Notes: generated by a model not told the origin, from the sequence alone. DNA of 32,000 bases from Nanoarchaeum equitans Kin4-M (GCA_000008085.1 AE017199.1:330001-362000); one strand, 5' to 3'; positions 966 to 30,844 are shown, counted from the stretch's first letter. Numbers and translations: made by a program.

Positions 966-1703
966 ATGAAACTTATAGGTACAGGTTGGAAAAGTCCTTC
1001 TTTAATAGATGTGCACAATAAAGTTACTTTTACTCTATGGCTTTGTGGGTGTAATTTGAAATGCCCTTTTTGTCATAACTGGAAAATAGCCGAAAAAATA
1101 GGGTGTGGAGAATTAGATATAAATAGATTGTTAGACGAATTAGATAGTGCTTCTTTATTAATAGATTATTTACATGTTACTGGGGGAGAACCCTTATTGC
1201 AATGGGAACCATTATTGGAATTGTTCAAAACCTCTTACGAAAATTATAATGTGGAAAACAGTTTGAATACTAATTTTACATTAACTATCCCATTAAAGAA
1301 GCATTTGGATTCGGGTTATGTTCACCATGTTGCTACCGATCTAAAAGTGCCCCCAAATGAAATGTATGGGGTAGAAAATTGGAAAGCCTTATGGGAATCC
1401 TATTTGAAAAGCCTTTCTCTAATGAAAGAATATGATATCCCCTTAGAATTAAGAATTCCTGTTTCGAGATTCCCATGGGAAGAAAAGAAACCATACATAG
1501 ACCAAGCACTTAAAGCTTTAGGAGACGCAAACTTCTATGTAATAATAAACCCATTATTGAATTACCCAGTTGTAAATCCTAGAAACAAAGAATGGTGTGA
1601 CAAGCATTGTTCTCCTCAAAAAGAAGAATTAAATATAATAAAAGACTATTTAGAGAGCCAAGGAATAAAAGTTTATCTAAAAGGGCACAGCGAATTAATA
1701 TAG
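966..1703 (+). CDS. radical SAM activating-enzyme family protein (PflA/NrdG-like)
   Basis: 245 aa. CGCNLKCPFCHN contains the CX3CX2C radical-SAM cluster motif near the N-terminus, followed by a GGEPLL SAM-binding motif. Size and layout match organic-radical activases. Confidence 0.7.
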   Translation: MKLIGTGWKSPSLIDVHNKVTFTLWLCGCNLKCPFCHNWKIAEKIGCGELDINRLLDELDSASLLIDYLHVTGGEPLLQWEPLLELFKTSYENYNVENSLNTNFTLTIPLKKHLDSGYVHHVATDLKVPPNEMYGVENWKALWESYLKSLSLMKEYDIPLELRIPVSRFPWEEKKPYIDQALKALGDANFYVIINPLLNYPVVNPRNKEWCDKHCSPQKEELNIIKDYLESQGIKVYLKGHSELI

Positions 1704-1758
1704 CCGGGGCAGTGGGGTCGAGAACCCCGTATGCTAGACCTGGCTACACCACGGGGGC
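1703..1758 (-). tRNA. tRNA-Glu(CUC) 5' half (split tRNA gene)
   Basis: Minus strand 1758..1719 reads GCCCCCG UG GUGU AGCCAGGUCUA GCAU A CGGGG UUCUCG. That is the acceptor 5' strand, the D arm, the anticodon-stem 5' strand and loop nt 32-37 with anticodon CUC. A 16-nt GC-rich tail ACCCCACUGCCCCGGC (1718..1703) follows instead of a variable loop and T arm. A TTTTTAAA box at 1786..1779 sits exactly 20 nt before G1. Confidence 0.85.
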
Positions 1759-1766
1759 AGTGATAA

Positions 1767-1786
1767 AATTTAAACCCATTTAAAAA
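1767..1786. promoter_or_regulatory. interleaved divergent TATA boxes (mre11 / tRNA-Glu half)
   Basis: Plus-strand AATTTAAA at 1767-1774, then 20 nt, gives a start at 1795 (ATG at 1796). Minus-strand TTTTTAAA at 1786-1779, then 20 nt, gives G1 at 1758. Confidence 0.7.
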
Positions 1787-1795
1787 CATTAACTA

Positions 1796-2881
1796 ATGAT
1801 AGCTTTCATTAGCGATTTGCATTTGGGCAATATTTACGCTAATAAAAAAGAGACTGAAGAGCATAGCTATAATGCTTTGGCAAAAATCGAAGAAAAGCTA
1901 TTAGAATACCAACCAGATTTAGTTTTGGTTGGAGGGGATATATTCGATAAAAACAAAGTCTCTGGAAAAGAGATTGGGGTATTCATAGATTTTATTAATA
2001 AAATGAATAAAAACAACATCGGAGTAGTAAGTATTAGCGGTAACCACGATGGCAAATATTGGTTAAAAGAATCATTCGATCACGCTATTCCCTATATTTT
2101 ATACAAAAGCGGAATTAACCCAGAGAATGGTTATGAATATTACTCTTTTGCTGGAATTTATTTAAAAAATTCGAGGGATTGGAAAACCCTTTCAATGATA
2201 GAGGATAAATATGATATCTCTATAGTAGGGTTTTCTTTTTATACCAAAGACCGTTTACCAGAATTGTATGAGTATTTGTCTATAATTGATAGGGAAAAAA
2301 GCGATTATATTTTACTAATGCACCAATCTCTCAAAAGTTTATTACCCCAAGATCCAGCAGCGATAGATTTAACCATTGAGAATTACAAATACGCTTTATT
2401 TGGGCATATGCATATGAAGTACTATAAGGATAAAATAATAGTAACACCCCCACCATATTCTATTTCGTTAAAAGAGGCCAATACTGAAAAAGGCTTTTGG
2501 TTAATAGATAAAAAACCCGTTTTTGTTCCTATAGAGGATAGTAGGCCTTTTATTAAAATGGCTATTGATTTAGATAACCCAATAGAGATAAAGCCAAACA
2601 AAAATGCCATTTTAATTTTAGATGTCTATTATAGAGAATCTCAAATAGACAAACTAAATCTATTGAAGAAAACCTTATCGGAAAACTTTTTGTATGTTAA
2701 AATAAACCCAATATTGAAAGAGACTAGCAAAATTATTGTTAAAAAGAGTGAAAACAAGGAAGAAATATTTAAGAAATATCTAAAAGAAGATTATGATTTC
2801 TTTATGGAATTATATGAAAAATTTAGAGACATAAAAGATCCAGAAACTATTGTTCAATACCTCGAATTTTTCTATCGATGA
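1796..2881 (+). CDS. mre11: DNA double-strand break repair nuclease Mre11
   Basis: 361 aa. Calcineurin-like phosphoesterase motifs appear in Mre11 order: DLHLG, GGDIFD, GNHDG, LLMHQS, FGHMH. No rad50 is adjacent. Confidence 0.8.
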   Translation: MIAFISDLHLGNIYANKKETEEHSYNALAKIEEKLLEYQPDLVLVGGDIFDKNKVSGKEIGVFIDFINKMNKNNIGVVSISGNHDGKYWLKESFDHAIPYILYKSGINPENGYEYYSFAGIYLKNSRDWKTLSMIEDKYDISIVGFSFYTKDRLPELYEYLSIIDREKSDYILLMHQSLKSLLPQDPAAIDLTIENYKYALFGHMHMKYYKDKIIVTPPPYSISLKEANTEKGFWLIDKKPVFVPIEDSRPFIKMAIDLDNPIEIKPNKNAILILDVYYRESQIDKLNLLKKTLSENFLYVKINPILKETSKIIVKKSENKEEIFKKYLKEDYDFFMELYEKFRDIKDPETIVQYLEFFYR

Positions 2882-3830
2882 CATTTTTATTAGATTGTAA
2901 CAAAACTACTCTCGAATCTACATGTTCATCAACCAAATCGTAATCTATATATTCGCTTAATTTTTTAGCGAATTCTTTTACTTCTTCATGTGTAGGCATG
3001 TTTTTTATTGTTAGTCTTTGTCTCGAATAACCCAATAACATAAACGCTTTTACTTCAACAAAATGGGGATTATACTTTTCTATTAAAGAGGCCCAACCCT
3101 CAAAATCTGTATCATTTATACCTTTAATTAATGTTATCCTCGCTACTTTTCTTGTTTTAGCGTGCCTCATTAGTTTTAAGCTTTTATTGAACCTCTTCCA
3201 TGCATCATTTAACAATGGTTTAGATACTTGGAAAAACAATTCTTCATTTGGAGCAGTAAAAGATATATAGAATTGAGTAGGCAATGCATTTTTTTCTATT
3301 AATTTTTCTATAGTTTCATAAACTACCCCATTTGTAACTATAAATATACTCTTAAGCCAGTGCCAGCTCTTTTTTAGATACAATATAGCTTCGTCCATCC
3401 TACCATATAATAATGGTTCTCCAATTAATGAAAATGTAACATGGTTTGGCAACAACGCTTCTTCTAACATTTTTTTATCCACTTTTTCATTACCTTTAAA
3501 ACCTATTAATAGCTCTGCTCTTAGCTTTCTTAGATTTTCTAACAAATCTTTTGGATCGGGCCAATCTTCATTAAGCAAATCTATATGCCCTTTTTGAAAT
3601 TCGTGATTTGGCCTCCAACAATAGATACATCTATTAGTACACCAAAATGCTGCTAAAGATATTTGCATACATCTATGTGTGTCTATTCCATAGAATTTGT
3701 TTTTGTAGCAAAATCTTTTGTTTTTCAAAGCTTCTTTAGTCCAATGGCATATTTCTACTGCTCCAGTTTTGTAAACTCTATAACCCGCTTTTTCATACAT
3801 TTCTTTTATTTTTTCATCAACATATAACAC
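2847..3830 (-). CDS. taw1: tRNA wybutosine-pathway radical SAM enzyme Taw1/TYW1
   Basis: Radical-SAM motif CTNRCIYCWRP, preceded by a second Cys cluster (CHW..CYKNKFYGIDTHRCMQ) typical of TYW1. TTTATAAA at 3859-3852 predicts a start at 3831, immediately before GTG 3830 (VLYVDEKIKEMYEKAGY...). The 34 extra N-terminal codons of the track ORF (up to 3932) overlap the divergent gene and are not used. Confidence 0.75.
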   Translation of the reverse strand: MLYVDEKIKEMYEKAGYRVYKTGAVEICHWTKEALKNKRFCYKNKFYGIDTHRCMQISLAAFWCTNRCIYCWRPNHEFQKGHIDLLNEDWPDPKDLLENLRKLRAELLIGFKGNEKVDKKMLEEALLPNHVTFSLIGEPLLYGRMDEAILYLKKSWHWLKSIFIVTNGVVYETIEKLIEKNALPTQFYISFTAPNEELFFQVSKPLLNDAWKRFNKSLKLMRHAKTRKVARITLIKGINDTDFEGWASLIEKYNPHFVEVKAFMLLGYSRQRLTIKNMPTHEEVKEFAKKLSEYIDYDLVDEHVDSRVVLLQSNKNVIDRKIRGIEQ

Positions 3831-3832
3831 CT

Positions 3833-3859
3833 GTTTTAAATGGAGTACCCATTTATAAA
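3833..3859. promoter_or_regulatory. interleaved divergent TATA boxes (SPOUT gene / taw1)
   Basis: Plus-strand GTTTTAAA at 3833-3840 gives a start at 3861 (ATG 3862). Minus-strand TTTATAAA at 3859-3852 gives a start at 3831 (GTG 3830). Confidence 0.65.
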
Positions 3860-3861
3860 TA

Positions 3862-4560
3862 ATGCGCGTAATAGTATTCTTCGTAGAGCCTGAGAAAGTT
3901 GATAACATAGGAGCAATGGCAAGGGTTTGCAAAAACTTTAATGCAGATTTATATTTAATTAACCCAAAAGTAGATAACTACGAAAAAGCCTTTGTTGTAG
4001 CAAAGCATGCCCAAGATTTATTGCAAAAAGCGATAGAGAATAAGCTAAATAGTATAGATGAAGCAAAAGAATTAGTTGATATAAGTGTGGGCACTACAGG
4101 AAAAATAGCTAACGAATACAATGTATTAAGAAGCCCTTTAAAACCATGGGAATTAGCAGAGAGGTTTGCCAATAGCGATATAAAACTTGGTATATTTATT
4201 GGAAGAGAAAGCATAGGTTTAACTAATGAAGAGCTATCAAAAATGGATTTTATTGTTACTATTCCTGCGAATAAAGAATATCCAATACTAAATGCTACCC
4301 ATGCTACAGCAATAATTTTATATGAATTATTCAAACATTCAAAAGAAGGGCATGTTAATTTAGCTTTACCAAAAAAAGAACAAATCGATGTTTTATTAGA
4401 TTATGTGAAGAAAATAATTGATAAACTGCCTCAACCAGATTATAGAAAGGAATATTATTTTATAATAATGAGAAAACTTATTACGCAAGGCATAATAAAT
4501 AGCAGGGAAGCCAATACATTAATTGGGTTTTTTAGATCTATATATGAAAATCTCAAATGA
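3862..4560 (+). CDS. SPOUT-class RNA 2'-O-methyltransferase (SpoU/TrmH, TrmJ/LasT-like)
   Basis: 232 aa. VFFVEPEKVDNIGAMARVCKNFNADLYLINPK (SpoU motif 1), IFIGRESIGLTNEEL (motif 2), and LNATHATAIILYEL (motif 3, knot). Confidence 0.75.
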   Translation: MRVIVFFVEPEKVDNIGAMARVCKNFNADLYLINPKVDNYEKAFVVAKHAQDLLQKAIENKLNSIDEAKELVDISVGTTGKIANEYNVLRSPLKPWELAERFANSDIKLGIFIGRESIGLTNEELSKMDFIVTIPANKEYPILNATHATAIILYELFKHSKEGHVNLALPKKEQIDVLLDYVKKIIDKLPQPDYRKEYYFIIMRKLITQGIINSREANTLIGFFRSIYENLK

Positions 4561-4606
4561 AGATATTGTGTGCTTCTGAACTAATGATGAAAGGAGCAGG
4601 AACAGA
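4557..4606 (+). ncRNA. C/D box sRNA (sRNA-1)
   Basis: AUGAAGA-UAUUGUGUGCUU-CUGA-ACUA-AUGAUGA-AAGGAGCAGGAA-CAGA. This is C, a 12-nt guide, D', a 4-nt spacer, C', a 12-nt guide, and D, 50 nt in total. The C box contains the UGA stop codon (4558-4560) of the upstream gene. The C(U5>A)/D(U2>A) change is compensatory at the K-turn U:U position. Confidence 0.65.
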
Positions 4607-4614
4607 TTATTAAA
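4607..4614 (+). promoter_or_regulatory. TATA box for the 4635 gene
   Basis: TTATTAAA followed by 20 nt, then the A of ATG at 4635. The box abuts the D box of sRNA-1. Confidence 0.6.
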
Positions 4615-4634
4615 TAGTATATAATTTTTCCCTA

Positions 4635-4991
4635 ATGAAAGCAGCAGTAGCGTGTTACGAAAGCAATGGTGTGTATAAGCTATTCCCAACAGAGTTTGGC
4701 CATGCCCCCATATTTGTAATAGTAGACCTCGATACAAAACAAATAGTAGAAAAAAGGGAAAACCCCTATAAGGGAGAAGAATCCAAAGATAAATTCAAAA
4801 AATTAGCCGAATATTTGAAAGATGTGGATTATTTTGTAGGCAAACAATTTGGTACATCTGTTTTGAAATTAAGGCCAATGTTTAACAAAATCCCCGTAGT
4901 AGTTAATGCCGAAACCTTAGAAGAAGCAATAGAAAAACTATCTAATTCGAAAGATAAGCTAAATTTAGACAGCTATGTTATTTTGTTGTAG
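4635..4991 (+). CDS. NifB/NifX-family (dinitrogenase FeMo-cofactor-binding fold, COG1433-like) protein
   Basis: 118 aa. MKAAVA...FGHAPIFVIVDL...NP...VDYFVGKQFG...IPVV matches the pattern of small archaeal NifX-like proteins recalled from memory. Confidence 0.55.
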   Translation: MKAAVACYESNGVYKLFPTEFGHAPIFVIVDLDTKQIVEKRENPYKGEESKDKFKKLAEYLKDVDYFVGKQFGTSVLKLRPMFNKIPVVVNAETLEEAIEKLSNSKDKLNLDSYVILL

Positions 4992-5330
4992 TTTGGCCAA
5001 TTCCTCTTTTAATTCGTCTTTTATTTTATCAATATCATTTTTAAGTTTTTCAGCCTCTATTTTCAAAGAATCCAATTGTTTTGCCATCTTTTCTATGGCT
5101 TTGTCTTTGTCTATTTCTACATAATACTTAGCTCCAACTGGGACAATAACTTTGTTCGTTTCTTTTGCTTCCCCTTTGATTAGCAAACCATTAAATAATA
5201 TTAAGCCATTCCCATCTCTTAGCTCTTTTAAATATTCTATAGCTAATTCCAATTCCGCTACTCTATTTAGTATTACTTCATATTCCTTTGTAAGCTCTTC
5301 AAAGAGCAAATACTTTTCTCTTAGATCCAT
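4965..5330 (-). CDS. pfdA: prefoldin subunit (alpha-type)
   Basis: 121 aa. Coiled-coil N and C termini flank a beta-hairpin region: LILFNGLLIKGEAKETNKVIVPVGAKYYVEIDKDKAIEKM. TTTATAAA at 5358-5351 places the start on ATG 5330. Confidence 0.6.
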   Translation of the reverse strand: MDLREKYLLFEELTKEYEVILNRVAELELAIEYLKELRDGNGLILFNGLLIKGEAKETNKVIVPVGAKYYVEIDKDKAIEKMAKQLDSLKIEAEKLKNDIDKIKDELKEELAKLQQNNIAV

Positions 5331-5350
5331 TAAGAGAATAAGCCTTTTCT

Positions 5351-5358
5351 TTTATAAA
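5351..5358. promoter_or_regulatory. single palindromic TATA box shared by divergent pfdA and hef
   Basis: TTTATAAA reads the same on both strands. It lies 20 nt from 5330 (ATG of pfdA) and 20 nt from 5379 (first in-frame codon region of hef). Confidence 0.6.
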
Positions 5359-5378
5359 TGGATTTTTGTCTATAATCT

Positions 5379-7457
5379 ATCCATGGCATAGAGCCAAGAG
5401 AATACCAAAAAAGAATATTCGAGACCGCTAAAAACTATAATACATTAATAGTATTGCCAACAGGTTTAGGGAAAACAGTAATAGCGTTAATGCTAATAGA
5501 GTATTTCAAACAAAAATACCCGGATAAAAAGATATTGTTTTTAGCTCCTACAAAACCTTTGGTTAATCAACATGTGGAATTTTTAAGAAAATATAGCGAT
5601 ATAGATCCAACAAAAATAGTTGGTATAAGTGGGGACATACCAAAAGAAAAAAGGGTAAAACTTTATAATGCCGATGTTATAGTTGCAACTCCCCAAACCA
5701 TAAAAAATGATTTGGCCAATAACTTAATAGATTTGAACAAATTCTCTTTAATTATATTTGATGAAGCGCATAGGGCTGTGGGTAACTATTCTTACACATA
5801 TATAGCTCGCAATTTCAATAATAGAATTGTAGGCCTAACCGCTTCCCCTGGGAGCGATGAAGAGAAAATAAAAGAAATAATAGAAAACTTAAAAATAGAG
5901 AGAATAGAATATAGAAACGAAGATTCCTCAGATGTTAGACCTTATGTAAAGAAAAAGGTTATAAAATATATCGGGGTAGCATTAGACAAAGAAATACTTA
6001 CAGCTTCTTCTCTTATACAAGAGGCGATAGAGATAAGGAAGAAAAAATTGGAAGAGCTTGGCATATTAAAGAGAAAAATAAAGGATATTGCTTTATTAAT
6101 GGAAGAGCTAAAGAAGAAACAAGCTTATAGCTTAGATGAAAGGGTAAAAGATGCTATAATTATTGGTTCTGAAATTTTAATTTTATTCCATGCTTTGAAA
6201 ACATTGCAAACCCAAACATATAGAGCATTTCTTAAATTTTGTGAAAACCTCTTCGAAAATGCCCAGAAATTAAGTGAAAAAAATGTTGCCGAAGATGTAA
6301 GGCTAAAAAAAGCATATTTGTATGTTAAAGATTTAGTTAAACAAGGCAAAGAACATCCAAAAATTAATGCTTTGTTAGAGATAATAAAAAAGAATAAAGA
6401 CAAAAAAATTATAGTTTTTGCCCAGCTTACAGATACGGTAATGCAGATAACTGAATTATTGAACAAAAATAACATAAAAGCTGTAGCGTTTACTGGTAAA
6501 AAGCTTATGACTCAAAAAAAGCAAATAGAGACTTTAGACAAATTTAGGGCTAATATATATAATGTTTTGGTTGCTTCTTCTGTTGCAGAAGAAGGGTTAG
6601 ATATACCGAAGGTGGATTTAGTAATATTTTATGAACCTATTCCCTCTGCAATTAGGGCCATACAAAGAAAAGGTAGAACCGGCAGGTTAAACTACGGTGA
6701 AGTAATAATATTGTATTCTAAAAATACTTTAGATGAAAAAGCTCTTTGGGCCTCTATTAGAAAAGAAAAAAAGATGTATGAAATATTGGAAAAACTTTCT
6801 AAAGAGGTTAAACCAAAAAAAGAGCAAACTTTAAACGAAGTATTGGGATTTAGATATAAAATTATTGCTGACCAAAGAGAACAAAATTCTTTAGTAGTAG
6901 ATGCGTTAAAAAAATTAGGTATAGGGGTTAAAATTGAGAATTTAGAGGTTGGCGATTATATAGTTGGCGATGTAGTAATAGAAAGAAAAACTATTAGGGA
7001 TTTCGTTGATTCTATAATAGATAATAGGATATGGGATCAAATGAATAAATTATCGCAATTAGATAAAAAACTTTTAATATTGGAAGGAGAAGAAGACCCA
7101 TATTTTATTAGAGATGTTAACCCCAATGTTATAAGGAGTGTTATATTAACTTTATCCTTAAAAGGGATACCAATAATAAGAACTAAAAACCCTATTGATA
7201 CAGCTTATTACATTAAAGTTTTGTCTGAAAAACAAAATAAACTGCCACAAATACCTAAAATAAAGAAAAAAGAACTAACTCCTAAAGAGGTTTTAGCTTC
7301 TTTTCCTGGTATTGGTGAAAAGAGTGCCGAAGAGCTATTAAAAAGATACAAAACTATAAAAAATGTTGTTAATGCTTCTTTATCGGGTTTATCTATTATT
7401 TTGGGGGAAAAGCGTGCTAAGAAGCTTAAAGAATTTTTAGAGAAAGAATATCAGTAG
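5379..7457 (+). CDS. hef: Hef-type helicase-nuclease (SF2 helicase + XPF/Mus81 nuclease + HhH2); start codon unresolved
   Basis: Helicase motifs LPTGLGKT, FDEAH, TASPG, QRKGRTGR. Nuclease motif GDYIVGDVVIERKTIRDFVDSI (GDXnERKX3D). C-terminal FPGIGEKSAEELL helix-hairpin-helix. The track starts at TTG 5454, but the in-frame upstream sequence IEPREYQKRIFETAKNYNTLIV (Q-motif region) is open back to 5376. Confidence 0.85.
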   Translation: MHGIEPREYQKRIFETAKNYNTLIVLPTGLGKTVIALMLIEYFKQKYPDKKILFLAPTKPLVNQHVEFLRKYSDIDPTKIVGISGDIPKEKRVKLYNADVIVATPQTIKNDLANNLIDLNKFSLIIFDEAHRAVGNYSYTYIARNFNNRIVGLTASPGSDEEKIKEIIENLKIERIEYRNEDSSDVRPYVKKKVIKYIGVALDKEILTASSLIQEAIEIRKKKLEELGILKRKIKDIALLMEELKKKQAYSLDERVKDAIIIGSEILILFHALKTLQTQTYRAFLKFCENLFENAQKLSEKNVAEDVRLKKAYLYVKDLVKQGKEHPKINALLEIIKKNKDKKIIVFAQLTDTVMQITELLNKNNIKAVAFTGKKLMTQKKQIETLDKFRANIYNVLVASSVAEEGLDIPKVDLVIFYEPIPSAIRAIQRKGRTGRLNYGEVIILYSKNTLDEKALWASIRKEKKMYEILEKLSKEVKPKKEQTLNEVLGFRYKIIADQREQNSLVVDALKKLGIGVKIENLEVGDYIVGDVVIERKTIRDFVDSIIDNRIWDQMNKLSQLDKKLLILEGEEDPYFIRDVNPNVIRSVILTLSLKGIPIIRTKNPIDTAYYIKVLSEKQNKLPQIPKIKKKELTPKEVLASFPGIGEKSAEELLKRYKTIKNVVNASLSGLSIILGEKRAKKLKEFLEKEYQ

Positions 7458-7500
7458 TGCCCATCACTCTTCATCTCTCTGGGTAGCCGTATGTCATCAT
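7451..7500 (-). ncRNA. C/D box sRNA (sRNA-2), D' guide complementary to the 16S rRNA 3' domain
   Basis: Minus strand: AUGAUGA-CAUACGGCUACC-CAGA-GAG-AUGAAGA-GUGAUGGGCACUA-CUGA, 50 nt. The C box contains the rps5 stop codon. The D box overlaps the last sense codon of hef. The first guide is complementary to GGUAGCCGUA, the conserved archaeal 16S sequence just upstream of helix 45. Confidence 0.8.
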
Positions 7501-8192
7501 TTGTTTATTATAGAGCCTTCTGTATAGCCAGAGAACTTTATAAAGAATGGTTGTACTCTTACATTCGATAGCTTCTTCAAAGCATCGAATACTGCAAATA
7601 CATGGTTCATTTTAGTTTTGGTCTTACCGAAAGATCTAACCCAAACATCTTTTATTCCGGCCAATCTAAATATTTTCTTTATCTCATCGTCTGCAACTAT
7701 TCCTACTCCCTTTGGAGCTGGTTTTAATATAACTCTAACACTTCCGGATTTGCCCTCAACTTGGTATGGAATAGAATGGGGAGCCCCACAAGCACATTCC
7801 CAAGAACCACAACCTCTCGCAACTTTTATTATATTTAGTTTAGCTCTATTAATAGCTTTTTCTCTAGCTATCAATAAATCGGAGCTTCTTCCTAATCCAA
7901 CTCCAACATGGCCATCTTTGTCTCCTACTATGGCAATAACTTCGTATCTCGTTTTATTACCTTCAGCAGTTTTCTTTTGTGCCATTCTATATGGTTTTTT
8001 AGACCTAAACTTACCTCTTATTATACGCCATTTCATAAATTCAACCTCTAAATTTGGTAACAATACATCAACTATCTCTGGTTCTCTAATAACATATTTA
8101 TTAGATAATATCTCATCTATATTTGTTATTTTACCCTCTTTGACTAACCTGCCTAACTTGGTTTTAGGTTGCCATTCCTCTATATTAACCAT
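7497..8192 (-). CDS. rps5: 30S ribosomal protein uS5
   Basis: 231 aa. VIAIVGDKDGHVGVGLGRSSDLLIAREKAINRAKLNII and the C-terminal GIVADDEIKKIFRLAGIKDVW are typical of S5. GTTTTAAA at 8221-8214 gives a start 1 nt before the ATG. Confidence 0.9.
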   Translation of the reverse strand: MVNIEEWQPKTKLGRLVKEGKITNIDEILSNKYVIREPEIVDVLLPNLEVEFMKWRIIRGKFRSKKPYRMAQKKTAEGNKTRYEVIAIVGDKDGHVGVGLGRSSDLLIAREKAINRAKLNIIKVARGCGSWECACGAPHSIPYQVEGKSGSVRVILKPAPKGVGIVADDEIKKIFRLAGIKDVWVRSFGKTKTKMNHVFAVFDALKKLSNVRVQPFFIKFSGYTEGSIINK

Positions 8193-8222
8193 TGGAGAAA
8201 AAACAATAATTTATTTAAAACC

Positions 8223-9353
8223 TTATCTAGTGATTTGCAAGTTTTTCAATTCTTCTAAATATTTGTTACCTTTTCCTTCTAAGAAATATTTTCTAGCAGG
8301 CTCTAATATTTCTATTAGCTTTTCTGCTACATACTCTTTTAAATCTAATGGATGTATTTGCTTTTTAGCATACGCTTCTTTTAATTGTTCGACATTATCA
8401 AATTCCATTGTTTGATGGGTTTTTTTGTTTTCTATTACTATGGGCTCTTTTAATATTGGATATATAACATATTCGACCAATTCTATTATTGGGTTTAGCT
8501 CTATTTCCCCTATGGGGCAATAAGCCTTTCTAATTTTTCTCCTTATATCTTCGGGAGTATCATGAATAAATATTGCAGTCTCGGGTTTAGATTTAGACAT
8601 TTTGATATCTATAACACTGTCCTCAAATAATTCCCTATTGTTTGTTTTCTTAGCCTCTAATAGTTTTTGTCTAATATTCTCATCTATATGCATTCCTAAT
8701 AATAAATGATGGTGTACAGCTATGGGCTTATAACCAAAAGCATCTGAAACCTCTATGGCTATAACATGGGCCTTCCTTTGGTCTATTCCCCCATGGGCTA
8801 AATTAACATTTAAGCTATATATATCTGCAACTTGCATAGGCACATATAATAATTGGGCGAAACTTATTGATTCTCCTTGCTTTCTTCCCATAATAGTTAT
8901 GCCCTTTTTAATTCTATTTAATGTTGTGTTCATAGAGATTTTTATTATGTTTTCTAGATATTCTATACCCAATTTCTCATACAATTCAGAGCCTAAGACT
9001 ACTTTTACTTCGTCTGGGTCTCCTCCTACAGTTTTAAGCGAAACCTTTAATGCTTCAGCGAAATAACCTTTCGCGACTTTTCTTATTGTTTCTAAATCCC
9101 CGCCTAACTTTTTATTAATCCATGAATGGTAATCCGCTAAAAATAAAGTAGTTTTAACTTTGGCTTTTTGAAAATCTCTAACTTTTAGCATAGAAATTAT
9201 TCCTGTGCCTAAATGCACAAAACCAGAGATTTCAAAACCAATGTAATGGTTTAAATCTATTCCTTGTTCTAAATATTGCTTTAACCTATCGATAGTAAGA
9301 ATTTCTTCTGTGGGCTTTTGTGCGATGAGGTTTATTCTTTCTTCTATATCCAT
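8223..9353 (-). CDS. tyrS: tyrosyl-tRNA synthetase
   Basis: 376 aa class I aaRS. HLGT (HIGH-type) and KMSKS motifs. [16 protein letters not shown] and [24 protein letters not shown] resemble archaeal TyrRS, not TrpRS. Confidence 0.85.
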
Positions 9354-9374
9354 TATTTTAAAGCGAATCCCTAA

Positions 9375-9390
9375 TTTAAAAGCCTTTAAA
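9375..9390. promoter_or_regulatory. back-to-back divergent TATA boxes (tyrS / H/ACA RNA)
   Basis: Minus-strand CTTTTAAA at 9382-9375 gives a start at 9354 (ATG 9353). Plus-strand CCTTTAAA at 9383-9390 gives a start at G9411. Confidence 0.7.
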
Positions 9391-9410
9391 TTCTTTATAT
9401 ATTATTCTAT

Positions 9411-9567
9411 GGCAAGGGACCGGCGGCCGAGAGGTGTAACCTATGACTGTCCCGTCAGGGATAGGATGAATAGGTCCCACCGCGGCCGTCGACAGCCCGG
9501 CACGAGAGTCCCCGAGTGAGAAGGCTATGGCCGTCGATGAGCTCGGGTGTTAGTGTGCGGGCAACAC
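9411..9567 (+). ncRNA. two-hairpin box H/ACA guide sRNA
   Basis: GC-rich island. Hairpin 1: a 9-bp lower stem (9421-9429/9483-9491), a pocket (AGAGGUGUAA / UCCCACCG), a 5-bp upper stem (9440-44/9470-74), a K-turn (GA 9445-46 opposite the GAU bulge plus GA at 9465-69), a 7-bp stem with a GUCA loop, and ACA at 9492-94. Hairpin 2: a lower stem (9495-9503/9555-9562), a pocket (GAGAGU / UGUUAGU), an upper stem (9511-16/9542-47), an identical GAU-GA K-turn (9536-40 opposite GA 9518-19), an apical stem with a UAUG loop, and ACA at 9564-66. Both ACA boxes lie 14-16 nt from the top of the 3' pocket strand. A T5 run follows. Confidence 0.8.
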
Positions 9568-9575
9568 TTTTTAAA
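9568..9575 (+). promoter_or_regulatory. TTTTTAAA: oligo-T terminator of the H/ACA RNA doubling as the TATA box of rpl41e
   Basis: T5 immediately follows the second ACA box. The same octamer lies 20 nt before 9596, and the ATG is at 9597. Confidence 0.6.
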
Positions 9576-9596
9576 TGTTATCTTTCTTTTTCCCCA

Positions 9597-9704
9597 ATGA
9601 AGAGATCTAGTAGGAGATGGAAAAAATATATGCAATCTCGATGGAAATGGCAGAAAAAGAGAATGAGGAGAGAAAAACGTAAAAGGAGGATGATGAGGAG
9701 ATGA
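9597..9704 (+). CDS. rpl41e: 50S ribosomal protein eL41
   Basis: 35 aa: MKRSSRRWKKYMQSRWKWQKKRMRREKRKRRMMRR. The W-x-KKRMRR-x-KRKRR core is the eL41 signature. It begins at Met28 of the 9516..9704 track ORF, whose upstream part lies inside the H/ACA RNA. Confidence 0.8.
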   Translation: MKRSSRRWKKYMQSRWKWQKKRMRREKRKRRMMRR

Positions 9705-13169: not shown

Positions 13170-13604
13170 TTATTGTTTAAACACTTGCATAACAACAGGT
13201 ACACCTAAATCCCACACTATAACATTGGCCCCAGGTTCTACTTTGTCTTTTAATTCCTCTGGTACTTTAGCTTCTATAACTTCGTATGTTTCCAAATCCA
13301 TTACTTGTGCTACTACTTCTTCTACTTCTCCTTGTGGAGAAGGTACTTTCCTTTTTTCTGTTGCTATTATTTGGCCTTTAATTTTTTTGATTTGGGGCAC
13401 TTTAATAGGGTCGCTTGTTGGTTTAATTATTACTATTTTCTTACCGCTTGTAACGCTAATTGCCTCTATTCTTGCTTTTGCAGACCCATGCTTTCCTGGT
13501 TTGGATGTTTCTATAGAAACTATTTTATATACTTCTCCATCTTGTTCGTTGTATATATAATTGCCAACCTTTAATTCTCCAACCTTTTTAACAATAACTT
13601 CCAT
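13170..13604 (-). CDS. eif5a: translation initiation factor aIF5A
   Basis: Hypusine-site loop TSKPGKHGSAKARIE. TTTTTAAA at 13632-13625 places the transcription start on the second ATG (13604, MEVIVKK...). The track ORF starts 3 codons earlier, at 13613. Confidence 0.9.
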   Translation of the reverse strand: MEVIVKKVGELKVGNYIYNEQDGEVYKIVSIETSKPGKHGSAKARIEAISVTSGKKIVIIKPTSDPIKVPQIKKIKGQIIATEKRKVPSPQGEVEEVVAQVMDLETYEVIEAKVPEELKDKVEPGANVIVWDLGVPVVMQVFKQ

Positions 13605-13622
13605 TTCTCGCATAGAATAAAA

Positions 13623-13632
13623 GTTTTAAAAA
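13623..13632. promoter_or_regulatory. coincident bidirectional TATA element (aIF5A / gatE C-half)
   Basis: GTTTTAAAAA. Plus-strand GTTTTAAA (13623-30) gives the G of GTG at 13651. Minus-strand TTTTTAAA (13632-25) gives the A of ATG at 13604. Confidence 0.7.
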
Positions 13633-13650
13633 TTTGTTTTCCTTCTAAAT

Positions 13651-14637
13651 GTGAAAGCTATCCTAAAAGATGTTACTTCTTTAGTTTCTAATTTTAATAG
13701 CAAAATAATACAAAAATCATTGAAAGAAGGGAAAAGGGCTTATATTATAGTTTTACCCAAGTTTGCAGGCCTTTTAAAATATGAAATAGGTAAAAGGAGG
13801 GTTGCTAAAGAATTGGTCGATGTTATTAAAAGGTTAGGCGTTAAAGGAATAATACATAGTGACGAATTGCCCAATTACGGTATAACCGAAGAAAATGTTA
13901 AACAAATTAGGGATTTTTTAAACATAAATGAAGAGGACGCTTTTATTATTTATTTGGTTGAACCTGAAAAATATAAAATTATCGCTGAAGCAATAATAAA
14001 TAGGCTAAACGAAATGATAAAATCTATTCCTAAAGATACTAGGCAAGCTCTAGAGGATGGAACTACTGCTTTTCTTAGGCCAAGGCCTGGTGCATCTAGA
14101 ATGTATCCCGAAACGGATCATCCATTAATTTTTATAGAAAAAACAAAGGATGGCTATTTAGTAAAGTATGGAGACAAAGAGTTTATTTATAAACCCAAAA
14201 AAATCGATTATGATAAAATATTTCAATACCTAAAAGAAAAAACTAATGAGAATTTGGCTAATGCCATAATTAAGAGCGAACATGTTTATTACATTATGGA
14301 GCTTTTTGAAAAATACAAAAACATAAAACCAACAATAATTGCTTCCATATTTTTTAACCCTGATGTAAAAATAGACTATAAAAAGATAGACATTGCCCTA
14401 AATGCTTTGAGTAAGGGTTTAATAACAAAAGAAGCGTTAGTAGATGTAATAAATAGTGATAACCCTGAAAAAACTATTAATGAATTAAAAGCTCTATCAA
14501 AAGAAGAAGCGAAAACAATTATTATGGATTTAATTAAAAAACATGGAAAAAAAGCTAAAGCCATAGCTTTCAAAGAGTTAAGAAAAAGAGTAGATCCGAA
14601 AATTATTAATGAAATTTTCCAAGAATTAGAAGGATAA
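13651..14637 (+). CDS. gatE: Glu-tRNA(Gln) amidotransferase subunit E, C-terminal half only (split gene)
   Basis: 328 aa starting inside the GatE insertion domain. HSDELPNYGITEENVKQIRDFL and DTRQALEDGTTAFLRPRPGASRMYPETDHP match the middle of GatE, followed by a helical/YqeY-like tail. The N-terminal catalytic cradle (about 270 aa) is absent. The gene has its own leaderless GTG promoter. Confidence 0.75.
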   Translation: MKAILKDVTSLVSNFNSKIIQKSLKEGKRAYIIVLPKFAGLLKYEIGKRRVAKELVDVIKRLGVKGIIHSDELPNYGITEENVKQIRDFLNINEEDAFIIYLVEPEKYKIIAEAIINRLNEMIKSIPKDTRQALEDGTTAFLRPRPGASRMYPETDHPLIFIEKTKDGYLVKYGDKEFIYKPKKIDYDKIFQYLKEKTNENLANAIIKSEHVYYIMELFEKYKNIKPTIIASIFFNPDVKIDYKKIDIALNALSKGLITKEALVDVINSDNPEKTINELKALSKEEAKTIIMDLIKKHGKKAKAIAFKELRKRVDPKIINEIFQELEG

Positions 14638-15807: not shown

Positions 15808-16096
15808 CTTTCTTTAGATGGGCTGGATGTACTATAAGTAATTTCTTTTCCCCATTGAATTCTAATTCTACTTCATAGCAATTGCCTCTTTTTCCAACAA
15901 CTGTACCAACTAATCCATGGTATCTAGGATGGGGCATCCCATAATGCCAAGAAGGCTCTATAACTATAGCTACTTTGTCATTATTGTTAAACTTTTGCAA
16001 TATCCTAGTTATAGTAAGTTTGCCCCTTTGCCTAGGATGTTTAGAAAGTTTATCTCTTGTTTTTCTTCTAAAGCCTTTGCCCTTTCTATCAACCAT
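15800..16096 (-). CDS. rpl21e: 50S ribosomal protein eL21
   Basis: 98 aa from Met73 of the track ORF: MVDRKGKGFRRKTRDKLSKHPRQRGKLTITRILQKF...PHPRYHGLVGTVVGKRG, a typical L21e. TTTATAAA at 16125-16118 gives a start at 16097. Confidence 0.9.
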   Translation of the reverse strand: MVDRKGKGFRRKTRDKLSKHPRQRGKLTITRILQKFNNNDKVAIVIEPSWHYGMPHPRYHGLVGTVVGKRGNCYEVELEFNGEKKLLIVHPAHLKKVG

Positions 16097-16102
16097 TGGA
16101 TA

Positions 16103-16125
16103 GCTATTAATAGACTCTTTATAAA
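16103..16125. promoter_or_regulatory. interleaved divergent TATA boxes (nth / rpl21e)
   Basis: Minus-strand TTTATAAA at 16125-16118 gives 16097. A weaker plus-strand GCTATTAA at 16103-16110 gives 16131, the second ATG of nth. Confidence 0.5.
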
Positions 16126-16763
16126 TGCAAATGCAGATTGAAGAGCAATTAAAGATTATAGAAGATTTGGTTAAAAAATTAAATGATAGGTTAGCAGTTC
16201 CATATATATGGGAGAAAACTAAAGACCCTTTTTGGGCTTTGATCGCGACAGTTCTTTCTATAAGAACCAGGGAAGAACAAACAATTAGAGCTTCTTTAAA
16301 TTTATATAACAAATATAAAGATTATAAAAATTTGGCTAAAGCACCAATAGAGGAAATAGAAGATTTAATAAAAAATGTTGGATTGTATAAGCAGAAAGCA
16401 AAATGGATTAAAACCATAGCTCAAAGATGGGATTATAATAAAAAATGTGACGAAAGCTTTATAAGGAATTTACCTGGGGTAGGAAGAAAAGTTGGCAATG
16501 TTTATCTTAATTTAGTATGCAACAAACCCTATATAGCGGTTGATGTGCATGTCCATAGGATAGCCAATAGATTAGGTTGGGTAAAAACCAAAACCCCCGA
16601 GGAAACGGAAAAACAGTTATACAAAATAATACCCAAAGAGTATTGGCCCAAACTAAATCATATGCTTGTTTTGTTTGGGCGAAATATATGTTTACCTTCA
16701 AAGCCTAAATGTGATATTTGTCCATTAGATTGTCCCTATAAATACAATAAAAATAAACCTTGA
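16125..16763 (+). CDS. nth: endonuclease III (HhH-GPD DNA glycosylase/AP lyase)
   Basis: DPFWALIATVLSIRT, the HhH motif LPGVGRKVGNVYL, and a C-terminal four-Cys cluster CLPSKPKCDICPLDC. The start is ATG 16125 or ATG 16131; promoter spacing favours the latter. Confidence 0.85.
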   Translation: MQMQIEEQLKIIEDLVKKLNDRLAVPYIWEKTKDPFWALIATVLSIRTREEQTIRASLNLYNKYKDYKNLAKAPIEEIEDLIKNVGLYKQKAKWIKTIAQRWDYNKKCDESFIRNLPGVGRKVGNVYLNLVCNKPYIAVDVHVHRIANRLGWVKTKTPEETEKQLYKIIPKEYWPKLNHMLVLFGRNICLPSKPKCDICPLDCPYKYNKNKP

Positions 16764-17639: not shown

Positions 17640-17777
17640 ATGCCAATATATGTTTGCTTTAATTGTGGGAGGGAAATAAAAATAGAAGGCAAACCAAGAT
17701 CGAGATGCCCATATTGTAATTCTACACTATTGTTCAAAAAACCCCCAAGGTTAACTAAACATCTAAAAGCTAGGTAA
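17640..17777 (+). CDS. rpoP: DNA-directed RNA polymerase subunit Rpo12 (RpoP)
   Basis: 45 aa, not in the ORF track: MPIYVCFNCGREIKIEGKPRSRCPYCNSTLLFKKPPRLTKHLKAR. It has a C4 zinc ribbon (CxxC...CxxC) followed by the basic tail typical of RpoP. Its stop codon shares nt 17777 with the 3' end of the convergent tRNA-Thr. Confidence 0.8.
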   Translation: MPIYVCFNCGREIKIEGKPRSRCPYCNSTLLFKKPPRLTKHLKAR

Positions 17778-17848
17778 GCCGCCGGCGGGATTCGAACCCG
17801 CGACCTCCGCCTTACCAGGGCGGCGCTCTTCCGCTGAGCTACGGCGGC
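17777..17848 (-). tRNA. tRNA-Thr(GGU)
   Basis: Minus strand: GCCGCCG UA GCUC AGCGGAA GAGC G CCGCC CUGGUAA GGCGG AGGUC GCGGG UUCGAAU CCCGC CGGCGGC U. This is a full cloverleaf with anticodon GGU and discriminator U, no intron, and no encoded CCA. TTTTTAAA lies exactly 20 nt upstream of G1. Confidence 0.95.
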
Positions 17849-17868
17849 GTAGGAGTATAGATGCAACA

Positions 17869-17884
17869 TTTAAAAATCTTTAAA
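17869..17884. promoter_or_regulatory. back-to-back divergent TATA boxes (tRNA-Thr / AAA+ gene)
   Basis: Minus-strand TTTTTAAA at 17876-17869 gives G1 at 17848. Plus-strand TCTTTAAA at 17877-17884 gives the G of GTG at 17905. Confidence 0.75.
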
Positions 17885-17904
17885 ATGCAATAATTCGATA
17901 GCTC

Positions 17905-25404: not shown

Positions 25405-25407
25405 AGA

Positions 25408-25431
25408 ATTTTAAAGCGATATAATTAAAAA
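25408..25431. promoter_or_regulatory. interleaved divergent TATA boxes
   Basis: Plus-strand ATTTTAAA at 25408-15 gives the A of ATG at 25436. A minus-strand T-rich box TTTTTAAT/TTTTTTAA at about 25432-25424 lies about 20 nt before GTG 25404. Confidence 0.55.
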
Positions 25432-25435
25432 AGCA

Positions 25436-26505: not shown

Positions 26506-26510
26506 GAAAA

Positions 26511-26533
26511 TTTTTAAACCAATTATTTATAAG
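26511..26533. promoter_or_regulatory. interleaved divergent TATA boxes (tRNA 3' half / membrane protein)
   Basis: Plus-strand TTTTTAAA at 26511-18 gives G26539. Minus-strand CTTATAAA at 26533-26 gives 26505. Confidence 0.7.
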
Positions 26534-26538
26534 GTTCT

Positions 26539-26598
26539 GGGCAGCCACGGGGCCCGAATTTGGTCCCCGTGACCCCGGTTCGAATCCGGGCGGGGCTA
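26539..26598 (+). tRNA. tRNA 3' half (split tRNA gene); the U72-type acceptor implies an A1:U72 tRNA (Gln or initiator Met candidate)
   Basis: GC-rich leader GGGCAGCCACGGGGCCC (26539-55), then GAAUUUGG, then U-CCCCG-UGAC-CCCGG-UUCGAAU-CCGGG-CGGGGCU-A. That gives an anticodon-stem 3' strand, a variable loop, a complete T arm, an acceptor 3' strand and discriminator A. There is no acceptor 5' strand or D arm upstream. The last 3 nt overlap the stop codon of the convergent gene, and a T-rich run follows. Confidence 0.85.
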
Positions 26599-27378
26599 CT
26601 CCTTTATTTTTCTTAATAACTTCTTATGCAATCTCTTAATCATCTCTTTTTTATCTTGCATAAATATTATATCACTTTGGCCCCATACTTCTAAATGCCA
26701 TGCAAATGGAGAAGGCATTTCCACTTCTTTTATATATATTTTCATTTTTTTAACTTTTCTCATAAATTCTTTAGCATGGAATATATCCATTTTATCCTCT
26801 AGAATTGTTCTATATGTTTCTTTCAATAAAGGAAAATCTGGGTAATGCTCTAAAAGGAAATTCAATAACGATTCTGCATTAATTTGTTGCCTCGATATTG
26901 GTATTTCTTTTCCCATGTATTTTTTTAGTATCATTAACCCTGTATTTGCCACATGTCTAAACACCCTCTTAAACATCTCGCTATTTTTAATGGCTTCTCT
27001 TAATATTTCTTCGAATTTATCTTCTTTTATTGATAATAAACCTAACAACTCTACTTTTTTTAATGCTTTCTCTTTTGGCACTATTATAGAAAAACCATAA
27101 TCCGATACAACTGTTCTTACATTAGTTCGCTTTTCTTTACTAATTAAATAAGCGAAAGCTCTAGACAAAGCATCGTTTGCTTTTCTTCCTAAAACAGTAT
27201 GAAAAATGTATTCTTCTATGTCATTATGGGGATATACCTCTATTAATAGTTCGTCTCTCTTTGGGATAAGCAAATATTTATATTGCTCTAACATATATTG
27301 GGCCAAATTTTTTGCTACTCTATCATTTACTTTGTATTTTTGTTTTATATAGTTAGTTAAATTCTCTATTTCAACCAT
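26596..27378 (-). CDS. Lhr-type large helicase-related protein, C-terminal (DEAD/H-associated) domain only (split gene)
   Basis: 260 aa. HTVLGRKANDALSRAFAYL, SDYGFSIIVP, FRHVANTGLMILKKY, DFPLLKETYRTILEDKMD and MPSPFAWHL resemble the domain that follows the helicase core in Lhr/COG1201 proteins. No helicase core is present. Confidence 0.6.
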   Translation of the reverse strand: MVEIENLTNYIKQKYKVNDRVAKNLAQYMLEQYKYLLIPKRDELLIEVYPHNDIEEYIFHTVLGRKANDALSRAFAYLISKEKRTNVRTVVSDYGFSIIVPKEKALKKVELLGLLSIKEDKFEEILREAIKNSEMFKRVFRHVANTGLMILKKYMGKEIPISRQQINAESLLNFLLEHYPDFPLLKETYRTILEDKMDIFHAKEFMRKVKKMKIYIKEVEMPSPFAWHLEVWGQSDIIFMQDKKEMIKRLHKKLLRKIKE

Positions 27379-29087: not shown

Positions 29088-29106
29088 TGGGCTTTATCCC
29101 ATAATA

Positions 29107-29116
29107 ACTTTAAATA
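29107..29116. promoter_or_regulatory. coincident bidirectional TATA element (rpoF / 69-aa gene)
   Basis: Plus-strand ACTTTAAA (29107-14) gives the A of ATG at 29135. Minus-strand TATTTAAA (29116-09) gives a start 1 nt before ATG 29087. Confidence 0.65.
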
Positions 29117-29134
29117 TTGTTGTTTTGTAGTTTA

Positions 29135-30798: not shown

Positions 30799-30844
30799 TA
30801 ATTAATTTGATGTTATTTTATAAAAGGGTTTTTTATTATTATGT

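Follow-up and report, generated by a model that had tools for sequence, protein, structure and literature searches.

A predicted start-to-start distance of 57 bp separates two divergent transcripts of Nanoarchaeum equitans Kin4-M, that of tyrosyl-tRNA synthetase (tyrS) and that of an H/ACA box small RNA (sRNA), at positions 9354 and 9411 of the 32,000-nucleotide stretch analysed here (the window). What sets this distance, and does it couple the expression of the two neighbours? An earlier note on this DNA had sorted the divergent promoters of the window into three discrete geometries, back-to-back, coincident and interleaved, with the tyrS/H/ACA locus in the first. Our reading, to which we give a probability of roughly 85%, is that divergent promoters throughout this genome follow a rule of few overlap registers and that 9354-9411 is one case of it.

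The analysis was carried out on the genome sequence NC_005213 (490,885 bp, a single contig, ~31% G+C), of which the window comprises bases 330001-362000; a window coordinate is the genome coordinate minus 330000. RNase P is missing from N. equitans (Randau 2012, PMC3491384), and because of this the 5' ends of its tRNAs can be equated with transcript starts. A promoter matrix was built from the 37 tRNA genes found by ARAGORN, aligned on their 5' ends. The resulting consensus has AAAA at -32..-29, T at -28, TTTT at -27..-24, AAA at -23..-21 and T at -20, with the TTTAAA core at -26..-21 from the transcript start; for the N. equitans box A (TTTAAA) the published position is 26-27 nt ahead of the transcript start (Randau 2012, PMC3491384). 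A single promoter can score at most 16.2 with this matrix. Scanned upstream of 556 gene calls of our own, the matrix gave a sharp peak at the first base of the start codon, with 79 matches at 0 and 42 at -1, and from this peak the mRNAs of N. equitans are predicted to be overwhelmingly leaderless, with a box-to-start spacing as rigid as that of the tRNAs. Given such rigidity and leaderless mRNAs, the distance D between two divergent starts would equal 47 bp plus the offset between the two cores. The elements of the locus are as follows.

8223-9353, minus strand: tyrS (tyrosyl-tRNA synthetase; Pfam tRNA-synt_1b, E = 2e-38)
9375-9380, minus strand: TTTAAA core of the predicted tyrS promoter, -26..-21 from 9354 (sequence and tRNA promoter consensus geometry)
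9385-9390, plus strand: TTTAAA core of the H/ACA sRNA promoter, -26..-21 from 9411 (sequence)
9411-9574, plus strand: H/ACA box sRNA (published RNA-seq termini; Randau 2012)

As judged from these positions, 9354-9411 is a 57-bp divergent region with two complete, putative back-to-back promoters, each made up of a TATA box and a transcription factor B (TFB) recognition element (BRE), with their cores 10 bp apart. The tyrS ATG occupies 9353-9351, and the predicted transcript start at 9354, where the tyrS promoter score peaks (13.1), would leave a leader of 1 nt. The tyrS BRE (-32..-29) is AAGG at 9383-9386 and covers the first two bases of the H/ACA box; reciprocally, the H/ACA promoter, which scores 11.8 at 9411, has its BRE, AAAG, at 9379-9382, covering the last two bases of the tyrS box. 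Both scores fall in the range of the tRNA promoters, and both promoters show the box position, the A-rich BRE and the purine at +1 (G at 9411; A at 9354 on the minus strand) that characterise box A promoters. The second 57-bp locus of the window, 17848/17905, has the same 10-bp offset between cores. Neither locus carries one symmetric box midway between the starts; each has two TTTAAA cores.

The 164-nt H/ACA sRNA has been mapped by RNA-seq to genome 339411-339574, between tyrS and the next gene, and a box A was noted for it (Randau 2012, PMC3491384). Ends of a poly(A)-tailed library lie at 9567-9575. Further RNA data were consulted as Logan contigs of RNA runs; such contigs cannot prove transcript starts, and their uncovered parts do not count as evidence. 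A contig of run X3 ends at 9354, the predicted tyrS start, which is a weak hint, and the contigs of run X1 leave a gap over 9376-9434, a similarly weak hint.

At the other end of the sRNA gene, bases 9571-9576 of the T-run and 3' end (CACTTTTTAAATG, 9565-9577) form a further TTTAAA box, whose distance from a predicted start at 9596 (score 11.5) is the standard one. An open reading frame (ORF; 9597-9704, plus strand) for an extremely basic product of 35 aa has its ATG 1 nt downstream of this start, and the H/ACA terminator and this next promoter overlap. The ORF may encode a small ribosomal protein; a Pfam search with it returned no match.

Divergent start distances across the genome

Start distances were collected over 133-134 divergent neighbour pairs. 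Their distribution, observed directly, is strongly multimodal and not continuous (134 pairs), with a peak at 47-49 bp, a cluster at 26-42 bp and a small peak at 57 bp, in line with the earlier expectation of discrete peaks. Under a longest-ORF rule, which uses no promoter information, 13, 5 and 3 pairs fall at 47, 48 and 49 bp and none at 41-46 or at 53-54; 21 of the 29 pairs in the 40-56 bp range sit at 47-49 (binomial p = 1.5e-10). A refined histogram was then compiled from refined gene models, stable-RNA genes and three hand corrections, using the distance between promoter-placed starts in 134 pairs.

16 bp or less: 7 pairs
17-25 bp: 1 pair
26-42 bp: 30 pairs
43-45 bp: 1 pair
46-50 bp: 41 pairs (22 at 47, 7 at 48, 10 at 49)
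51-54 bp: 1 pair
55-58 bp: 9 pairs (6 at 57)
59-63 bp: 0 pairs
64-120 bp: 30 pairs
more than 120 bp: 14 pairs

The overlapping registers thus hold 80 of the 134 divergent pairs (~60%). The three geometries first proposed for the window are real genome-wide but not exhaustive, as they leave out 7 pairs at 16 bp or less and 44 in a tail at 64 bp or more.

In the seven shortest pairs the starts are 6-16 bp apart (e.g. genome 462597/462603, 458731/458738, 277833/277847 and 189403/189419). Any standard box must here fall within the first codons of the partner, and the promoter scores are mostly poor for at least one of the two.

The spacers within a peak share one form. At D = 47 it is 20 nt, TTTAAA and 20 nt, with the core invariant in 18 of 18 pairs, an A-rich left and a T-rich right flank, i.e. 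a BRE-TATA-BRE unit; A stands at the left positions -32..-29 in 10-12 of the 18 pairs and T at the mirrored positions in 6-12, the genome average being 0.34 for each. Spacers with D = 49 have the form 20 + TTTATAAA + 20, and those with D = 32 carry cores at positions 6-11 and 21-26. In the sub-peak at D = 32-33 (7-9 pairs) the BRE position -32 comes to lie on or beside the start of the partner. One shared symmetric box is present in 41 of 134 pairs genome-wide and, in the window, at 13604/13651, 29087/29135, 5330/5379 and 30798/30845.

A histogram of pairs of matrix hits was also compiled and was dropped as evidence, since third-order Markov random sequence gives the same peaks at 47-48 and 56-57; they arise there because the motif is self-symmetric. 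The evidence for the classes is that real genes begin at the predicted places, not that the matrix finds hits.

To what extent two promoters can share DNA was calculated directly as the best total score that one sequence can give to a plus- and a minus-strand promoter copy at each D, with the start codons fixed. The maximal joint scores were:

D 33-37: 32.5
D 44: 16.8
D 47: 27.1
D 52: 1.3
D 57: 32.3
D 61: 25.5
D 65 or more: ~32.5

The joint score is full at 33-41 bp, collapses at 43-45 and at 50-54 bp (16.9 or less at 50-54), dips at 60-62 and has local maxima at 47 and 57. Distances are empty because cores out of register, or a T-run facing an A-run, demand different bases at one position. 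The discrete spacings follow from a near-palindromic promoter and a rigid box-to-start distance, and a regulatory purpose is not needed to account for them.

We propose that two copies of the near-palindromic promoter (AAAA-T-TTTTAAA-T) would be able to overlap in few registers only, namely with crossed boxes (D about 27-42), with one shared palindromic box (D = 47-49) or with BRE and TATA swapped (D about 57), beyond which the promoters would be fully separate (D of 64 or more). Pressure to shrink the genome may have packed the pairs into the shortest workable of these registers.

The pattern was found again, by direct comparison, in two relatives, namely G002, a complete genome of 605,887 bp and 24% G+C from another family, and G001, the closest relative, of which 568 kb were examined. 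In G002 the box hexamers peak at -29 from the start codon; under the longest-ORF rule 13 pairs form a peak at 52-53, others cluster at 28-45, and 46-50 and 59-62 are gaps. G001 shows clusters at 27-46 (the dominant one), 48-51 and 62-67, with 52-61 and 68-74 empty. The same architecture thus recurs in both, shifted as each genome's own box-to-start distance predicts.

The boxes of protein genes in G001 and G002 are ~3 bp further from the start codon than in N. equitans (-29 and -27 to -29). Their tRNA boxes lie further upstream of the mature 5' end, at variable distance and not at a fixed 26 nt, which suggests that tRNAs in these two genomes, unlike those of N. equitans, may have leader sequences.

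Several points weigh against the rule of few registers. The mRNA starts are predicted from the sequence, and that every one of them is used is what we infer. Two RNA contigs run across spacers, one of run X4 spanning the 17848/17905 spacer and one of run X1 extending over 1729-9375. Many crossed pairs score weakly, the mean of the weaker partner being 2.1. The class counts are approximate, as the gene calls are our own and three of the eleven junctions in the window were at first mis-called; these (5330/5454, 15807/16125 and 28915/29135) were corrected by hand from Pfam alignments and the sequence, and the genome-wide tail counts are probably overestimated. In some pairs the choice of start codon was aided by the promoter score, which is circular and is the reason why the longest-ORF control was included. 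The 57-bp class is thin, with independent support of p about 0.03-0.05. Finally, the landscape does not account for the height of the peak at 47, by far the tallest, as compatibility is no lower at 33-41 and at 57. Economy may have favoured it in a strongly reduced genome, where 47 bp would combine a single box with the shortest uncrossed spacer.

The proposed 57-bp register and rival explanations

At D = 57 each promoter uses the A-half of the other's box as its A-rich BRE, and its T-run is at the same time the complement of the other's BRE; the ideal sequence is the palindrome ATTTAAAAATTTTTAAAT. Exactly this sequence is present outside the window (genome 221737/221794), where it lies between the 5' half of tRNA-His and a membrane-protein gene whose start is the one given by the longest-ORF rule, with scores of 15.4 and 15.4. 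Six pairs have a placed start distance of 57, and in four of these both scores are at least 5, two of the four being the loci from which the class had been proposed. When the latter are set aside, two of the three pairs in the 55-63 range with both scores of at least 5 are at 57 (p about 0.03), one of them (120114/120173) with a promoter-assisted start. The class is plausible and statistically established only marginally. A stable-RNA gene takes part in each of the three strong 57-bp pairs, and no other class scores as highly on both sides, as would be expected if 57 bp were the shortest uncrossed register that allows two full-consensus promoters.

It has nearly even odds that 57 bp is not preferred at all, and that it is the lower edge of ordinary, independent divergent promoters on which the two window loci coincide by chance. 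Beyond these loci only the unbiased 221737/221794 and the promoter-assisted 120114/120173 are at 57, with the p values given above, although the first of these two is the predicted palindrome in perfect form, and the three strong cases unite a stable-RNA gene with very high scores on both sides. Owing to the self-symmetry of the motif, matrix pairs at 56-57 in third-order Markov random sequence amount to ~2/3 of the real count; yet joint compatibility has a sharp maximum at 57 (32.3, with 25.5 at 61 and no more than 16.9 at 50-54), and with both scores of at least 5 the range 50-63 is filled only at 55 (1 pair) and 57 (4 pairs). The relatives speak on both sides. G002 has no peak at the equivalent 62-63 bp, whereas G001 has its separate cluster at 62-67 beyond the empty zone of 52-61. 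Both window loci lose synteny in G001, where neither the tyrS/H/ACA sRNA nor the tRNA-Thr/AAA+ pair is syntenic.

A stronger form of the register rule we regard as unlikely, though worth stating: 57 bp would be a third, selected overlap register, with its BRE/TATA swap, used where both partners need maximal strength, notably by stable-RNA genes, and ~60% of the divergent transcription-unit pairs would be under obligatory mutual exclusion. If true, neighbouring genes would be hard-wired into reciprocal coupling in a regulator-poor genome. No description of this +10 bp 'swap' register was found in the texts consulted on archaeal bidirectional promoters.

Somewhat more doubtful still is the proposal that the geometries exist because overlapping initiation complexes compete, which would provide reciprocal coupling in place of transcription factors. 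The sequence overlaps indicate that one site for TATA-binding protein (TBP), or an overlapping BRE and TATA box, would not hold two opposed complexes of TBP, TFB and RNA polymerase together, and about 60% of the divergent pairs (80/134) are in overlapping registers. For shared and crossed spacers we infer, on sound structural grounds, that two initiation complexes could not occupy the DNA at the same time. The earlier note had made mutual exclusion special to the coincident and interleaved classes, and this distinction fails: in a 57-bp spacer the BRE of either promoter falls on the partner's TATA box and flanking bases, and the TBP/TFB complexes would overlap in the back-to-back class too. 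In Escherichia coli, steric competition at bidirectional promoters has been demonstrated at high activity and matters only there, basal activity being too low for competition at all five bidirectional promoters tested (PMC12825309). The gaps and peak positions are, moreover, predicted from sequence compatibility alone, and partners such as tyrS and the H/ACA sRNA, aIF5A and a GAD-domain protein, or prefoldin and Hef have no evident functional pairing.

It is hardly credible, and largely refuted, that annotation or motif symmetry has produced the classes artificially, with the second promoter no more than a palindromic box read backwards and one of the starts unreal: the matrix by itself does produce the 47-48 and 56-57 peaks in random sequence, but the 47-49 peak persists under the longest-ORF rule, the partners are bona fide genes with family matches that reach their N-termini (e.g. 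L21e), the 5' ends of tRNAs, tRNA halves and the H/ACA sRNA are fixed independently, and two other genomes peak at their own spacing.

The other divergent junctions of the window

All ten divergent pairs listed in the earlier note were recovered from the sequence at their places, and the less obvious starts it had used belong to real genes (tRNA halves, L21e, Hef-like). An eleventh junction, 30798/30845 (47 bp), was absent from that list. Every one of the eleven divergent junctions in the window spans 58 bp or less. Apart from tyrS/H/ACA, the spacers are given below, with the strand of each partner.

1759-1795, crossed: tRNA-Glu(CUC) 5' half, start 1758 (minus); Mre11-like phosphoesterase, ATG 1796 (plus); score at 1758, 14.2
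3831-3861, crossed, 32 bp: wyosine radical-SAM enzyme, GTG 3830 (minus); SpoU methylase, ATG 3862 (plus)
5331-5378, shared box, 49 bp: prefoldin subunit, ATG 5330 (minus); Hef-like helicase/nuclease, start 5379 (plus); TTTATAAA at 5351-5358
13605-13650, shared box, 47 bp: aIF5A, ATG 13604 (minus); GAD-domain protein, GTG 13651 (plus); TTTAAA 13625-13630
16097-16130, crossed, 35 bp: ribosomal protein L21e, ATG 16096 (minus); HhH-GPD glycosylase, ATG 16131 (plus)
17849-17904, 57-bp spacer: tRNA-Thr(GGT), 17777-17848 (minus); AAA+ MoxR-like ATPase, GTG 17905 (plus); cores 17869-17874 and 17879-17884
25405-25435, crossed, 32 bp: starts 25404 (minus) and 25436 (plus); plus-gene box TTTAAA 25410-25415, minus-gene box 25425-25430
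26506-26538, crossed, 34 bp: 200-aa ORF, ATG 26505 (minus); tRNA 3' half, start 26539 (plus)
29088-29134, shared box, 48 bp: 69-aa ORF, ATG 29087 (minus); Rpb4-like protein, ATG 29135 (plus); TTTAAA 29109-29114
30799-30844, shared box, 47 bp: central TTTTATAAAA; promoter scores weak

In the three shared-box pairs that had been recognised before, one palindrome lies 20-21 nt from both starts (3/3); the TTTAAA at 13625-13630, for example, is 20 nt from the aIF5A and from the GAD-domain protein start. Crossed pairs from the same list hold two boxes, each serving the farther gene, in five cases out of five. Both boxes in 3831-3861 are at -26..-21 of the farther gene, and the minus-gene box at 25425-25430 is TTTTAA when read on the minus strand. 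The tRNA-Thr/AAA+ spacer has promoter scores of 14.8 and 10.8, and the prefoldin/Hef-like spacer has weak ones (2.6 and 3.6). L21e was matched over its full length, residues 5-97 aligning with profile positions 3-99, and the remaining junction partners carry Pfam assignments. The RNA contigs offer weak hints here as well: those of run X1 leave 13581-13671 uncovered, around the aIF5A/GAD-domain spacer, a contig of run X2 ends at 3831, and at 16089 contig ends are found in three runs, which come from two studies.

The start at 1758 (minus) is that of the tRNA-Glu(CUC) 5' half (window 1690-1758), for which Rfam gave no match. The start at 26539 (plus) belongs to a tRNA 3' half (window 26539-26600); its leader and the trailer of the 5' half at genome 419223 are complementary, and Rfam returned a partial, sub-threshold tRNA match at 26550-26598 (E = 0.12). 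Split tRNA halves, others of which are at genome 221794, 409228, 419223 and 436673, are missed by ARAGORN and by the Rfam gathering thresholds, and can be recognised as G+C-rich islands that start exactly 26 nt after a strong box.

In the Hef-like gene (plus strand) the conserved N-terminal motif, IEPREYQ...GLGKT, is encoded ahead of the first ATG/GTG/TTG, which is at 5454, in a frame that follows a stop at 5373-5375. Either ATC 5379 or ATA 5388 must therefore serve as the start codon, and this non-canonical codon lies at the very 5' end of the predicted leaderless mRNA. Near the other end of the gene, C/D sRNA18 (window 7447-7505, minus strand) has its 3' end at ~7448, as judged from loose poly(T) ends before 7447-7453 in the A-tailed libraries of small RNAs. 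It adjoins the region where the Hef-like gene stops (its end is at 7457), as well as the stop end of the next minus-strand gene (7497-8192).

Known bidirectional promoters and the meaning of the registers

Divergent starts in Thermococcus kodakarensis are mostly 52 bp apart around a shared TATA box; at a rarer spacing of 36 bp the BRE reaches the opposite start site, and both spacings have been ascribed to motif symmetry (Warman et al., bioRxiv 10.1101/2020.01.31.928960; Nat Microbiol 2021). In Pyrococcus furiosus a BRE-TATA-BRE motif is transcribed in vitro both ways, the two starts being 49 bp from each other (Gruenberger et al. 2019, PMC6640164). The N. equitans 47-49 class has the same anatomy as these shared-TATA promoters of T. 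kodakarensis, Haloferax volcanii and P. furiosus, i.e. starts at twice the distance from box centre to start, one palindromic TATA and a BRE on either side. It differs from that of the Thermococcales in its spacing of 47 bp, which is due to a box ~3 bp closer to the start, in that both directions drive genes (mostly leaderless mRNAs, tRNAs and sRNAs) and not mostly antisense or non-coding RNA, and in making up ~30% of all divergent gene pairs. The 9354-9411 locus departs from the shared-TATA type by its two boxes.

The 36-bp class of T. kodakarensis finds its likeness in the N. equitans sub-peak at 32-35 bp, where BRE position -32 is at or next to the partner's start, and the offsets from the respective shared-box peaks are alike (52-36 = 16 and 47-32 = 15). 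In contrast to it, the N. equitans class spans a wide range (26-42 bp), has a coding or RNA gene on either side and includes many weak scores; the BRE-on-start feature of the 36-bp type does not apply to 9354-9411. The box A promoters described for tRNAs, tRNA halves, the CRISPR leader and H/ACA sRNA (Randau 2008, 2012; PMC3491384) have TTTAAA 26-27 nt before a purine start, and the H/ACA promoter at 9385-9390 is one of these published cases. That work covers single stable-RNA promoters, whereas pairing geometry and protein-coding partners lie outside it. Bacterial promoters with -10 symmetry (Warman et al.; PMC10268837, PMC12825309) likewise show discrete spacings, 18 bp and minor classes, which occur where key positions of the motif form base pairs with their mirror counterparts, and steric competition between polymerases is possible there too; they differ in using sigma70 and the -10 hexamer rather than TBP, TFB and TATA, and in the spacings themselves. 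Our literature search found no paper on a divergent promoter organisation of this kind in N. equitans. The phenomenon takes the bidirectional promoters known from archaea to an extreme, from gene to gene, and adds one spacing register that may be new but no new mechanism.

What the registers reveal for N. equitans is the extent of promoter sharing in a minimal genome, with ~60% of divergent pairs in overlapping promoters and spacings predictable from symmetry. They supply a rule for correcting start codons, which recovered the L21e start and the non-canonical Hef start, and an aid in finding small RNA genes and tRNA halves. The principle that symmetry makes promoters bidirectional is extended from the mostly non-coding RNAs of the Thermococcales to essential gene pairs, and the spacers of 32, 47 and 57 bp are natural templates for asking whether archaeal initiation complexes compete.

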